A DNA stretch of 64,000 nt from an uncultured Chloroflexia bacterium (GCA_963817095.1 CAWFND010000008.1:229911-293910), one strand, 5' to 3'; counted from the stretch's first letter, positions 22,608 through 63,020 are shown. Numbers and translations are program-made. The notes: generated by a model from the letters alone, not told the origin.

Positions 22608-23130
22608 TCACGCCTCCGCCGCGACCGCTTCGCCAGCCCCGGCCGGCGCCGCGGCACTCGCGCTGAGCTCGCCGGCGGCCTGCTGGATCGCCTTCACGAT
22701 GTTCACGTAGCCGGTGCAGCGACAGAGGTTGCCGCTGATCCCCTGCCGGATCTCGGCTTCCGATGGGCTCGGGTTCTCGTCGAGCAGCCAGGCGGCCTGC
22801 ATGATCATGCCCGGGGGTGCAGAACCCGCACTGGAGACCGTGCTGGTCCCAGAACGCCTGCTGGAGCGGGTGGAGGGTGGCCCCGTCGACCATGCCCTCG
22901 ATCGTCTTGATCTCGGCCCCGTCGGCCTGGACCGCGAGCATCGTGCAGGACTTCGCGCTCCGGCCATTCACGTGGACCGTGCACGCGCCGCAGTTGCTCG
23001 TGTCGCAGCCGATGTGCGTTCCGGTCAGCCCGAAGACGTCTCGGAGCAGGTGGACGAGCAGGAGCCGTGGCTCGACGTCGGCCTCGTGGGCCTCGCCGTT
23101 GACCGTGACGGTGATGTGCTGTGTCGTCAT
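22608..23130 (-). CDS. coxS: CoxS (2Fe-2S) small subunit, interrupted by a 1-nt insertion at about 22810-22817
   Basis: N-terminal [13 protein letters not shown]...LQCGFCTPG in one frame and MIMQAAWLL...[16 protein letters not shown] in the +1 frame. The junction lies in a CCCGGGGG run. Confidence 0.8.
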
Positions 23131-23140
23131 CGTCGTTCCC

Positions 23141-24014
23141 TCACGCGTTCGCCAGCGCCCGCTCGACCGCCTTGCGGAGCGATCGAAGGGTGAGCTCGGC
23201 GACCATCGCCCGCTTGTAGTCGGCGGGGCCCCGGACGTCGGCGGTGGGTTCGCTCGTCGCGGCCGCCGCCAGGCCGGCGGCCCGGAACGCCTCGTCGGAC
23301 GGTTGCTTGCCCGCGAGGCCGGCTTCCGCGTCGGTCGCGGCGAACGGCGAGCCGGAGACGCCGGTCACGCCGATCCCGGCCCAGCGGATCGCGCCGTCAT
23401 CGCCGATGCCGACGACCGAGGCGACTCCGGCTGTCGCGAAGTCGCCGACGCGCCGCTCGAGCTTCACGTAGGCGCCGCCCTGGCCGCGGGGTCGGCGGCC
23501 GAACCGGATCTCCGTGAGGATCTCCGTCGGCTCGATCGCGGTCGTGAACGTGTCGAGGAAGAAGTGGCGCGCCTCGATCACGCGCTCGCCATTCCGTCCC
23601 CGGCAGACGATCCTGGCGTTCACCGCGAGGAGCGCCGCGGGCCAGTCCGAGGCGGGATCCGCGTGGGCGACGGAGCCGCCGATCGTGCCCCAGTTGCGGA
23701 CCTGCGGGTCGCCGATGCCGCCCGACACGTCGTGCAGAAGCGGATAGCGCGCGATCGTGGCGTCCTCGTGGATCTGGCGGTGGGTGGCCCGCGCGCCGAC
23801 CCTGAGCTCATCATCGGTCTCGACGATCGCGTCGAGGCCGGCGACGTCCTGGATGTCGACGAGGAGGCCGGGCTGCGCGAGGCGCAGCTTCAGCAGGGGC
23901 AGCAGGCTGTAGCCGCCCGACAGGATCTTGGCCTCACCCTCGTGATCGGCAAGGAGCCTGAGGGCGCCGTCCAGATCCGGCGGACGAGCGTAATCGAAGG
24001 GTGCCGGGAATCAT
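23141..24014 (-). CDS. coxM: CoxM (FAD-binding) medium subunit, frameshifted at codon 5-6 (extra G in the GGG run at 23999-24001)
   Basis: ATG-ATT-CCC-GGC-ACC (MIPGT) followed one base later by the [40 protein letters not shown] frame. That frame is open and continuous to 23141 (...[12 protein letters not shown]...). Confidence 0.75.
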
Positions 24015-24361
24015 GCGCGACCGTCCTCCTCACCCCACCATGGGGGCGCTCACCGGCCCGTCTCGCTCCCCTCGCGACGAGCTGCCTGATGTCGACGATC
24101 GGGCCGGCGGAAGGTGTCGCTTGCGGCGTCCGTAGGTGCGCGCGATCCGTCCGGGGTCCGCTGCCCGGAGTGTAACGCCGTTGAACACTGATGGGGTGAT
24201 CAGGTTCGCGGGTGGAATCCCTCGCGACTCCGGACTTCGTCGGCGAACACGGATCGGTTCTCCGGGCGATTCGCCTGTCAATTCCGTCCGTGGCCGTTCG
24301 TCGTGCAGATGAAGGGGCGGACCCGACGGGCCGCCGAACAACGAATCGAGGAGGTTGTGCC

Positions 24362-60125: not shown

Positions 60126-60596
60126 TCAGGCCTGGGCGATCGGATCCAGACGGTGGTAGACGCCGGCCGCCGCCACGTGGCGGCGTGCCGCGCGGTACAG
60201 GAGGTTCGCCGGGAACGGCTGCTGCGTCCACGTCGCACGGATGACGGCATCACGCTCGGGCCCGGCGGCAAGCGTCACCACCGCGTAGCGGGGACCCGAG
60301 GGCCCCGACGGATCGACGTCGACCCACCCGGCGGCCTCGACGTTGAGCGTCCATGGGGCATGGCCGTTCGGATGCCCGACGTAGCCGCGACCACCGACCG
60401 TGATCAGGGTCACGAGGATCCGCCTCGGCGTTCCGGTCCGGCGGCCCACCGTCCGCAACTCGACGACGCCGCCGAGGCCCGGCAGGCCGTTGGCCCGCCA
60501 CGATTCGAGCAGGGGCGCGAACAGCCGGATCAGGCGATACGACACCCGGAACACCGCCGACCACATCGCCGACCGTCGCACCGGCAGCGCGCTCAC
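60126..60596 (-). CDS. deazaflavin (F420)-dependent nitroreductase family protein (DDN-like)
   Basis: LRTVGRRTGTPRRILVTLITVGGRGYVGHPNG...W.LN. ATGA overlap with the upstream gene. Confidence 0.75.
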   Translation of the reverse strand: MSALPVRRSAMWSAVFRVSYRLIRLFAPLLESWRANGLPGLGGVVELRTVGRRTGTPRRILVTLITVGGRGYVGHPNGHAPWTLNVEAAGWVDVDPSGPSGPRYAVVTLAAGPERDAVIRATWTQQPFPANLLYRAARRHVAAAGVYHRLDPIAQA

Positions 60597-61411
60597 GGCG
60601 GTGAGGATCCCCGACGGCGCCCGAACGAGCCGGGCCCGAGTGCGGCGGCGGCCTCAGCCGGTGAAGCGAGCGCAAGGCGCGCCGCCTCGGCGACCCGGGC
60701 GAGCTTCCGTAGCACCGTGTCCCGCGGGAGCGCCGCGAGCGACGGCGCATTGGCAAGACCCACCCGATCGATGCCCCGCCCCCCTGTCGAAGCGGCGTAC
60801 TGGGCGGCCCAGATGAGCACCTCGAGCGCCTCGTCGGCGTTCGGGCCAGGGCCCAGGGCGCCGCAGACGATGCCCCGATCCTGCGGCGCCAGCGCGATCA
60901 GTCGCCAGTCGTCCGGGCCGGCGATGAGGTCGAAGGCGTAGCTCGCATACGGCAGGTCGAAGAACGTCGACGCACCGGCTGCGTCATGGTTGCCGCGACT
61001 CAGCGCCAGCGACAGATGGGCATCGGCCACGCCGGCCGTCAGGCGGCGATGGGCGTCCACGAACCGTCGCCGCTCCCCGTCGACGACCGCGATCGCGAGC
61101 GCGTCCGGCTCGTCGATCTCGATGAACGGGCAGCCGGCGGTCGTGAGGGCGTCGATCGTCGCGGCGAGGGCGTCGGCGAGATCGGCGGGCCGGGTCCGGG
61201 GTCCGTCCCGGCCGGCCGAGTACGGCCCGGCGAGGACCTGCTTGACCGGTCGGCTGGTGGCCTCTGCGGCGGCTCGCCAGGCGTCGACGACGTCGCCCGG
61301 CGCCAGAGCCGCGCCGGCCGGAGCGGCGCCCGTCGCCAGCAGCTCGAGGCCGGTTCCCTCGATCTCTGCCAGGCCGATTGCCGGCAGCGGACCGAGCAGC
61401 GTCGAGAACAT
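60593..61411 (-). CDS. MetE/UROD-like superfamily protein (short cobalamin-independent methionine-synthase-like)
   Basis: A 272-aa C-terminal portion of the listed ORF. SD GGAGGT 4 nt before ATG 61411. The CPFIEIDEPDA block is MetE-like. The upstream half of the listed ORF is antisense to the kinase gene. Confidence 0.5.
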   Translation of the reverse strand: MFSTLLGPLPAIGLAEIEGTGLELLATGAAPAGAALAPGDVVDAWRAAAEATSRPVKQVLAGPYSAGRDGPRTRPADLADALAATIDALTTAGCPFIEIDEPDALAIAVVDGERRRFVDAHRRLTAGVADAHLSLALSRGNHDAAGASTFFDLPYASYAFDLIAGPDDWRLIALAPQDRGIVCGALGPGPNADEALEVLIWAAQYAASTGGRGIDRVGLANAPSLAALPRDTVLRKLARVAEAARLALASPAEAAAALGPGSFGRRRGSSPP

Positions 61412-61462
61412 GGGACCTCCGGACGGGGCGCCGATGCTACTCCATCGGGTAGCCTCGGCTGC

Positions 61463-63020
61463 ATGCCCGTGCCTGGCGACGTCCTTGCCGATCGCTACCG
61501 GATCGGTGCCCTGCTCGGCTCCGGAGGAATGGCGACCGTTCATCGGGCGCACGACGATCGACTCGGCCGAGACGTCGCGATCAAGGTTGTGCTGCCCAAC
61601 CTCGCCGGCGATCCCGTCCTGGCCGGCCGGTTCGAGCGCGAAGCCCGGGCCATGGCGGCCGTCGCCGATCCGGGGCTCGTGGCCATCTTCGACATCGATC
61701 CGGGTGATTCCCGAACGGGTCGCGAGCCGTTCGTCGTGATGGAGCTCTGTCCGGGCGGTTCCCTGGCCGATCGGCTCGGCCCGGATCGTCCCATGTCGCC
61801 CGATGAGCTCGTCCCGATCCTCGTCGCGGTGTCCGACGCCCTGGCGGCGCTCCATCGGGCCGGGCTGGTCCATCGCGACGTCAAGCCCTCGAACATCCTC
61901 TTCGCGGCTGACCGGGTCAAGCTCGCCGATTTCGGACTCGTCCGATCGAGCGCCGACGCGGCTGCGGCCGACCTCACGGACCCTGGCACGGCGATCGGGA
62001 CCCTCGCCTACCTCTCGCCGGAGCGGCTCCACGGCGAACCTGGCGGACCGGCATCCGACATCTTCAGCCTCGCGACGCTCACCCACCTGGGCCTGACCGG
62101 ACAGCTGCCACGGCCGAGCGGCTCCATCCAGGATCTCGTCCGCGCGTCGGCCGCCCAGCCTCCTGCCGTGTCGACGGTCTCGCCGGCGCTCGGCGGTGCG
62201 TTCGACGAGGCGGTGCTCGCCGGACTCGCGGTGGAGCCGACGCGCCGACCGGATGCCCTCGAATTCGAGGCAAGCCTTGTCGCCGCCCTCGGTCGATGGA
62301 CGCGGAGCGGACGTCCCGGAGCCGCCGTCTCGTCTCTGGCCGCGGTGGCGCCCGCAGCGACGAGCCCAACCCTCGATCCTGAGCTGACGACCGCGCCGAT
62401 CATCCCGGTGGCCACGACGGCGGCCCTCGAACTCGCGGCCATGCAACCACCGCCCACCAGCTCGAGGCCGCTCCAGCCATCACGATCGACTGACCGCGAG
62501 ACACGGTCGCCCGACCGGCTCCCGGACTCGCTGCTGGCCCTCGTGGCCATCGCGATCGTGGCCGTATTCGTCGGCTTCGTCGGCTCGAGGTTGCTGCTGG
62601 CGTCGCCCGGTTCGTCGGCCGGCGCGGAGGGAAGCCGCCCGGCGCCATTCGCATCGCCATCCGCCGCCGTGGGCTCTGTCGCGCCGACCGCGTCGTCCCG
62701 TCCCAGCTCGGCGCCGACGCCGACGCCGACGCCGACGCCGACCAGCCGACGCTGCGATCGGGGCCCTGGCGAACCTCGACGCCGCGATCGCGGCCGCCCG
62801 TGGCGGACGGGACGGCCTCAAGGGCAAGGAGGCGAACGAGCTGAGCTCGATGGCGGAGAGGGTCCGTCGCGATCTCACCGCGGGCGATCGCGCCGGGGCG
62901 CTCAGCGACGCCCGGACGCTCGATCAACGCGTGCGTGACGTCGCCGAGGGCCTCGACGGGGAGACCGCAGATCGATTGGCGAGTGCGTCGGCGGCCCTGC
63001 TCGATGCCTTGAACGGCTGA
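61463..63020 (+). CDS. Hanks-type Ser/Thr protein kinase with TM helix, (PT)n linker and C-terminal helical domain; frameshift in the PT repeat (~62745)
   Basis: YRIGALLGSGGMATV, AIKVV, HRDVKPSNIL, DFG, GTLAYLSPE. TM LLALVAIAIVAVFVGFV. After PTPTPTPT the ORF continues in the +1 frame to a stop at 63020. Confidence 0.8.

Follow-up and report, generated by a model that had tools for sequence, protein, structure and literature searches.

What has become of the form I carbon monoxide dehydrogenase (CODH) genes, and of a number of their neighbours, in a stretch of DNA from an uncultured soil bacterium of the Limnocylindria, a class within the Chloroflexota? In this 64-kb stretch, hereafter the window (contig CAWFND010000008.1; GC ~70%; coordinates counted from its first letter), 14 genes are broken up between adjacent reading frames by single-base insertions or deletions, a pattern that could be taken either for gene decay or for faulty sequence. 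We conclude that the 22 frameshifts concerned are very probably consensus errors of a long-read-only metagenome assembly and not mutations of the organism; the stray bases are present in the sequence, yet in all likelihood they represent no biological feature.

Because lists of open reading frames (ORFs) are uninformative at ~70% GC, a codon model was trained on long confident ORFs and the window was then segmented by a seven-state Viterbi procedure. The segmentation places same-strand frame switches at nearly all of the coordinates at which a first-pass annotation of this DNA had suspected broken genes, Pfam scans of stop-to-stop fragments show single domains divided between adjacent frames, and the remaining junctions were placed by three-frame translation. 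Between 22.8 and 62.8 kb this gives 22 single-base events, which fall in 14 genes. Nineteen are net +1 (22813, 24002, 27590, 36960, 38771, 42924, 43474, 43732, 44254, 44389, 44607, 44773, ~45160, 46754, 57957, 58099, 59010, 59192 and 62745) and three net -1 (33267, 34456 and 37972), insertions thus making up 86% of the events. The first-pass annotation had also counted 14 broken genes, 13 of which are confirmed by the Viterbi segmentation, by split Pfam domains and by comparison with relatives; its remaining case, a YVTN protein, is a truncation with no indel. The event in coxE lies at 42924 and not at ~42860 as first given, a junction proposed at ~34550 is superfluous, as an in-frame GTG start is available, and the present list adds a thioredoxin event at 38771 and five sites in a STAND-TPR gene that had been called broken with no coordinates.

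Relatives for comparison were drawn from two scans. Species-representative genomes scanned with the intact XdhC/CoxF protein (40360-41469) yielded 80 loci, nearly all of them metagenome-assembled genomes (MAGs) of Chloroflexota, class Limnocylindria, which span ~18-24.7 and 38.4-53.5 kb of the window. The nearest of these, L003 (MFD02242.bin.1.368), shows 93% amino acid identity and ~86% nucleotide identity. A second scan, of metagenomes with the intact permease (56709-57704) as query, yielded 53 short-read contigs spanning 53.9-59.6 kb. The events are as follows, inserted bases being given in square brackets where they can be singled out.

22809-22816, minus strand: coxS (form I CODH), +1 inside Fer2_2; window CCCGGGGG, relatives one base shorter
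23999-24004, minus strand: coxM (form I), +1 at codon 4; window ATG ATT CCC GGC ACC, relatives ATG ATC CCC GCA CCC
27585-27594, plus strand: FAD-dependent aromatic-ring monooxygenase, +1 near the C-terminus; Rng_hyd_C ends at 66/107
33262-33272, plus strand: adenylate/guanylate cyclase, net -1 between the membrane region and the catalytic domain
34450-34462, minus strand: DUF4760 membrane protein, net -1; frame switch with the DUF4760 domain downstream, ORF restored by one added base
36950-36968, plus strand: anti-sigma/PD40 beta-propeller gene following an ECF sigma factor, +1 about 20 codons in, placed by three-frame translation
37965-37980, plus strand: the same anti-sigma/PD40 gene, net -1 in the C-terminal propeller part
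38768-38773, minus strand: Trx2-like thioredoxin, +1 in the N-terminal zinc-finger region; CAGCG[C]GCTTG, base absent in 3/3 relatives
42921-42927, minus strand: coxE, +1 at codon 6; GGG[A]TCCC, L003 GGGTCCC
43471-43477, minus strand: coxD (MoxR-type AAA ATPase), +1; window ACCGGGCGG, relatives ACC-GGCGG
43729-43735, minus strand: coxD, second +1, directly after Walker A; window GACGCCCGGCC, relatives GACG-CCGGCC
44250-45165, minus strand: STAND NTPase-TPR gene, five +1 at ~44254, 44389, 44607, 44773 and 45160, most outside homopolymers
46744-46756, minus strand: molybdopterin-binding (Moco-binding, MoCF_biosynth-like) gene, +1; window GGCCCGCGC, relatives GACC-GCGC
57950-57964, minus strand: ABC transporter ATPase, +1; window AAGTCCGAG, relatives AAGTG-GAG or AAG-CCGAG
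58094-58105, minus strand: ABC transporter ATPase, second +1; window GTGTTCGGG, relatives GTGT-CGGG
59005-59014, minus strand: periplasmic substrate-binding protein (SBP), +1; CTTC[G]TCGAG, no homopolymer
59186-59196, minus strand: SBP, second +1; TAGG[C]TCG, no homopolymer
62712-62752, plus strand: Ser/Thr kinase, net +1 within a (CGCCGA)x6.5 repeat encoding a Pro-Thr linker, placed by three-frame translation

The genes are otherwise intact. If every +1 site is shortened and every -1 site lengthened by one base, an uninterrupted full-length ORF is obtained in 14/14 genes, with Pfam domains complete. All of the lesions are single-base indels; the ~5,200 corrected codons contain no in-frame stop and no larger deletion, and neither an insertion sequence (IS) element nor a nonsense codon is found among the 22 lesions. 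In coxS, for example, Fer2_2 is divided 1-33 / 24-75 over two frames and reads 1-75/75 (119 bits) once corrected. The stop-to-stop ORF of coxM (23144-24010) holds full FAD_binding_5 and CO_deh_flav_C domains with no start in its first 94 codons, the ATG lying four codons upstream and one base out of frame; the insertion therefore severs the ATG from the remaining gene, and the corrected ORF spans 1-287/289 of orthologues. The conserved tail of the FAD monooxygenase (...LGTVAAPSAVLIRPDGYVAW...) is found in the next frame, giving after correction Rng_hyd_C 1-107/107 at 97 bits. The cyclase has Guanylate_cyc in frame 1 and its N-terminal transmembrane part in frame 2, which one added base joins into a 407-aa ORF, and the anti-sigma/PD40 gene becomes a 441-aa ORF with zero stops. 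The corrected thioredoxin (38421-38849, minus strand) consists of an N-terminal CxxC...CxxC zinc-finger extension of the Trx2 type followed by a full Thioredoxin domain.

Much the same holds for the genes further along. Corrected coxE encodes 470 aa and matches its L003 orthologue along residues 1-470 with 93.4% identity. Uncorrected coxD retains only the C-terminal half of AAA_5; minus both bases it encodes 312 aa with AAA_5 at 1-139/139 and 90-94% identity over 98-100% of the length to many intact MoxR ATPases. Five bases removed from the STAND-TPR gene leave a single ORF of 810-812 aa with no stop, the TPR_12 score rising from 27 to 118 bits, and the corrected Moco-binding ORF spans 9-388/388 of the L003 orthologue. 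For the ABC ATPase, ABC_tran is divided 1-79 / 107-136 between frames and corrected to 1-136/137; for the SBP, Peripla_BP_4 goes from 7-90 / 157-250 to 7-250/258 (101 bits). The kinase shift parts the kinase and its transmembrane part from the C-terminal helical domain, and the corrected ORF is stop-free. Its imperfect hexanucleotide array (62703-62752, plus strand) carries 10% indels according to TRF, so that the exact site is not fixable; this is the weakest localisation of all, and a true change in repeat length is a little more credible for this event than for the rest.

Consistent with these restored ORFs, the ratios of nonsynonymous to synonymous substitution (dN/dS) against L003 lie at 0.08-0.19 for the corrected genes (CoxD 0.084, CoxE 0.093, STAND-TPR 0.18, Moco-binding 0.19) and at 0.07-0.24 for intact neighbours. 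Ratios of this kind rule out old pseudogenes and are blind to very recent inactivation. Beneath the stray bases, on the reading preferred here, the genes are whole and subject to ordinary purifying selection.

Are the extra and missing bases shared with any relative? The first-pass annotation had proposed comparing each junction with orthologues by tblastn. Run with six-frame ORFs, such searches did show the frame switch in 54 loci for coxD and in 26 loci for 46754, but the junction calls were noisy because antisense and off-frame ORFs remain open in DNA of 70% GC. They were replaced by a caller working on nucleotide alignments, which scores a site when at least 75-80% of the covering relatives show a net gap of a length not divisible by 3. 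By the strict caller and in raw counts, respectively, the inserted base is lacking in 29/30 and 42/42 relatives at 22813 (coxS), in 29/29 and 47/47 at 43474 (coxD) and in 28/28 and 44/44 at 43732 (coxD). The Moco-binding base at 46754 is lacking in 11/12 relatives. Short-read metagenome contigs lack the ABC ATPase bases (24/24 at 57957, 23/23 at 58099) and those of the SBP (15/15 at 59010, 13/14 at 59192). At four STAND-TPR sites, as at 38771, the base is absent in 3/3 relatives each; at the fifth (~45160) the placing of the gap is ambiguous in the three alignments, though the site is net +1 against L003. The insertions at 24002 (coxM) and 42924 (coxE) are clear in the alignments. Overall, eleven insertions are missing from nearly all of the 12-47 relatives that cover them, and six others had 3-4 relatives each for comparison. 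None of the shifts is common to any covering orthologue among the genome loci and metagenome contigs compared. Two more single-base differences from L003 are seen at 42945-42960, in the 30 nt that separate the stop codon of coxD from the start of coxE. These may be further stray bases, unscorable in non-coding DNA, and the real error count in the window therefore probably exceeds 22.

The decisive test of an origin in assembly is a comparison of sequencing technologies. The same private-frameshift caller was run on every locus of the same gene neighbourhoods, 37 of the 80 genome loci being from the Microflora Danica (MFD) collection and 42 from short-read MAGs. The MFD MAGs are Nanopore-only, assembled with Flye --meta --nano-hq and one Medaka round, and those of lower coverage showed Nanopore-associated errors (PMC12313526). 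Nanopore bins below ~40x have been found to need short-read polishing, residual indels fragmenting their gene calls (PMC9262707). The rates obtained were these.

MFD (Nanopore-only) loci: 116 events in 356 kb covered, 3.26 per 10 kb
Short-read loci: 5 events in 232 kb covered, 0.22 per 10 kb
The window: 4 events by this caller in 16 kb covered, 2.5 per 10 kb

The MFD rate is 15 times the short-read rate (binomial p=1e-19), and at least one event is found in 21/37 MFD loci as opposed to 3/42 short-read loci (Fisher p=1.5e-6). Three MFD loci contribute 62 of the 116 events, and the contrast holds without them (p=1e-8). The window falls in the long-read range, and it resembles the 37 MFD loci in rate (~2.5-3.3 events per 10 kb), in its +1 bias and in clustering. 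By frame class the MFD events divide 97:19, the single-base events comprising 95 +1 and 16 -1 (~85% +1), from which the 19:3 of the window does not differ (Fisher p=1.0). Of the MFD events 61% have a neighbour within 300 nt, where 43% would be expected (p<0.002). Some MFD loci (L065, L041 and L071, also L045 and L054) are much worse than the window, three of the 37 carrying 17-24 private frameshifts within 10-13 kb of comparable sequence around the cox genes; L003, L027, L051 and L062 have zero by the same caller. The likeness to known errors of Nanopore-only MAGs (MFD-LR catalogue; Sereika et al. 2022, 2025) extends to single-base indels that fragment otherwise intact gene calls, are depth-dependent and are missing from relatives assembled from short reads. 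The contig itself is probably Nanopore-only, from Flye and one Medaka round, at modest or low depth.

One alternative is a real and very recent pseudogenization of the organism or of the dominant strain in the sample, in a mutator lineage with a +1 bias or under relaxed selection on form I CODH and its neighbours. Four form I cox genes are affected (coxM, coxS, coxD and coxE) and the form II cluster is clean; the events pile up, with five in STAND-TPR, two each in coxD, the ABC ATPase, the SBP and the anti-sigma gene and none in the first 22.6 kb; and the window also holds one true gene remnant, that of the YVTN protein. In the reductive decay of Mycobacterium leprae and host-restricted Salmonella serovars, too, many adjoining genes are broken, some of them multiply. 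Real decay, however, leaves nonsense codons, varied deletions, truncated genes and IS insertions side by side, with dN/dS elevated. The spectrum of the 22 lesions is uniform, with no nonsense codon, larger deletion or IS among them, each site is reversible by a single base, and the dN/dS of the affected genes is indistinguishable from that of intact neighbours. Bacterial mutation is usually deletion-biased, contrary to the 19 insertions and 3 deletions seen here (binomial p=0.0009). Decay specific to the form I CODH pathway was rejected: coxL1, coxG, MobA and both XdhC/CoxF genes (XdhC-YHS and XdhC2) are intact, and frameshifts are also found in unrelated genes (transporter, kinase, cyclase, thioredoxin, monooxygenase). 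Moreover, an identical signature is found in many unrelated Nanopore-only MAGs and in nearly none of the short-read MAGs of the class. Recent pseudogenization is thus improbable. That the bases are real in the particular sense of a mutator Limnocylindria population or strain, making patchy +1 insertions that are only now inactivating form I CODH accessory genes, the sugar ABC transporter and several regulators, ahead of any other decay, we hold to be most improbable.

Two further accounts turn on the sequence at the sites themselves. The first-pass annotation had favoured long-read error and had located almost all junctions in G/C homopolymer runs. Its preference for error over decay is supported by events that are private, of one lesion kind, reversible, and like those of the MFD loci in rate, sign and clustering; the homopolymer-length mechanism is not. 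Miscalled lengths of G/C runs, by basecaller or consensus, are the best-known Nanopore assembly error (PMC9262707), and runs are indeed lengthened at 22813 (G4 -> G5, the only classical homopolymer case), at 43474 (GG -> GGG) and at 43732 and 46754 (CC -> CCC). Yet 7/22 events (32%) have a run of at least 3 within 3 nt, as do 31% of all window positions, and at 6 nt the share is 55% for the events against a background of 46% (p=0.27); for runs of at least 4 (9% vs 6%) and at least 5 there is no significant enrichment at 22 events. The impression of homopolymers is what is expected from any set of positions in 70% GC DNA. At least seven sites are insertions between unlike bases (TTC[G]TCGAG, AGG[C]TCG, GCGA[T]CGCC, CTCG[T]GCGAG, CAGCG[C]GCTTG and GGG[A]TCCC, for example), insertions prevail where deletions are usual for this error, and the MFD control events show no homopolymer specificity either (runs of at least 3 at 57% vs 47%, no enrichment for runs of at least 4). 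Classical homopolymer miscalling is accordingly very unlikely as the cause. The notion that the shifts are tolerated, being decoded by programmed ribosomal frameshifting or transcriptional slippage, would fit genes that otherwise look perfect, and nothing specific beyond that speaks for it. The sites show no slippery motifs or A/T runs, one gene would need up to five shifts, no shift is conserved in any orthologue (12-47 per well-covered site), and the shifts track sequencing technology rather than lineage; the chance that this explanation is correct is vanishingly small.

Several observations nonetheless tell against consensus error in a long-read-only assembly. Confidence is limited in that we infer the sequencing technology of the contig itself. 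For six of the 22 sites (27590, 33267, 34456, 36960, 37972 and 62745) the evidence is that of frame and domains only. The caller was applied to coding and non-coding DNA alike, without validation on a known-clean control. The textbook Nanopore error, and the one stressed in the literature on Nanopore-only MAGs, is the homopolymer deletion, whereas the events of the window, like those of the MFD loci, are mostly insertions in any context. A very recent real event would be compatible with the sequence, the closest comparator standing at 86% nucleotide identity and, in CoxD, 96% amino acid identity. Finally, the events are not uniform: the first 22.6 kb has none (p=7e-5), whereas nine are crowded into the 4 kb from 42.9 to 46.8 kb (p=2.5e-4), and the index of dispersion is 2.3 (p=0.003). 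Some genes have 2-5 events and their neighbours zero, a pattern that real dead genes also show.

This patchiness is nevertheless present in the MFD loci as well. In the window it extends to 46.8-57.9 kb, where there are no events, and in the first 22.6 kb all ~19 genes have start codons and complete domains. It would reflect local read depth, or a mixture of strains, varying at the scale of read length. At 43474, 43732, 44773 and 59010 (and 57957) the inserted bases resemble two alleles of a polymorphic site set side by side, as where the window reads CTCG[TG]CGAG and relatives read CTCG[G]CGAG and CTCG[T]CGAG. To judge from these sequences, such an appearance hints at a consensus artefact of co-assembled strains rather than basecalling noise. 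On the reading of assembly error, then, a long-read-only consensus would retain stray single bases, mostly one extra and in any sequence context; these would gather in patches on the scale of kilobases, where reads give little local support or co-assembled strains disagree; and every stray base would divide one gene call into two.

With the stray bases removed, how ordinary is the locus? The co-occurrence of form I and form II CODH that had been noted at first sight is borne out by the active-site motifs of the two CoxL proteins, and the clusters are laid out as follows.

18.7-20.3 kb: form I accessory genes coxG and XdhC-YHS
20.2-24.0 kb: form I coxM-coxS-coxL, CoxL1 motif AYRCSFR
39.8-43.9 kb: form I accessory genes MobA, XdhC, coxE and coxD
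47.5-51.3 kb: form II coxS-coxL-coxM, CoxL2 motif AYRGAGR

As in known form I and form II clusters, a coxMSL with AYRCSFR is accompanied by coxG, coxD, coxE, coxF/XdhC and MobA, and there is likewise a second coxSLM with AYRGAGR. The arrangement is syntenic with that of many Limnocylindria MAGs, and compared with known cox clusters the corrected window is left with nothing unusual. It does differ from L007 and L037 in an extra segment of 13.7 kb between the cox structural and accessory genes. This block (~24700-38400) encodes an APH kinase, the FAD monooxygenase, DsbA, the YVTN remnant, SnoaL, DUF642, the cyclase, a luciferase-like monooxygenase and the ECF sigma/anti-sigma pair. It is missing in L007 and L037, where form I coxMSL adjoins thioredoxin-MobA-XdhC-coxE-coxD, and is an insertion or variable region splitting the cox locus. 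The GC minimum of the window falls inside it (0.65 at 30-34 kb). The thioredoxin homologue of L007 is inverted relative to its flanks, unlike those of the window and L003.

Within the block lies the one lesion of a decay type that fits the class of true pseudogenes.

29246-29788, minus strand: YVTN/Vgb-like (virginiamycin-B-lyase-like) beta-propeller remnant, 181 codons, no start, a stop 2-6 codons upstream

Its homologues are 302 aa long and 71-78% identical to it; what the gene retains is their residues 124-302, the C-terminal 60%. The N-terminal 123 residues were sought by tblastn at a permissive E-value, in all frames, upstream to ~30500, and none were found. The gene is a real truncated remnant, or marks a rearrangement or assembly breakpoint, and is no single-base error.

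Some other features of the window deserve mention. At 53929-56934 (minus strand) a LacI-family regulator (LacI and Peripla_BP_3, aa 106-446) and an FGGY sugar kinase (aa 486-944) share a single frame of 1002 codons that no stop interrupts. In the relative L117 the regulator has a stop and ~150 nt separate it from the kinase gene; the gap in the window is ~65 nt and in frame throughout. A real fusion, a read-through or another hidden indel, in the regulator's tail, could account for it. Frame switches at 9958 and at 13601/13801 were rejected as frameshifts, being ordinary gene boundaries together with a separate 64-aa ORF. The latter, at 13624-13818 (plus strand) between an ABC ATPase and its ABC-2 permease, has 64 codons with good codon statistics, a strong Shine-Dalgarno sequence (GGGAGGTGA) and no Pfam match. 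It was considered as a frameshifted permease N-terminus and rejected as such; it is a separate small gene with a Shine-Dalgarno of its own. Scans of the whole 64-kb window for tRNA genes and Rfam families gave nothing above threshold.

What these frameshifts amount to is a quality warning, for this contig and for similar public MAGs, with no biological significance of their own. The signature, ~85% +1, not bound to homopolymers and patchy, is unlike the textbook homopolymer deletion and should be useful in the design of correction tools. The first-pass annotation was right to treat gene boundaries and "pseudogene" status here as provisional: between ~22.8 and 62.8 kb the gene calls and pseudogene labels are unreliable, the apparent loss of form I CODH included, and the corrected ORFs are intact. 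The same caution extends to a sizeable share of the public Nanopore-only species-representative MAGs of the class, such that the inference of atmospheric CO oxidation from these genomes, as well as pseudogene and coding-density statistics, needs frameshift-aware annotation or polishing.

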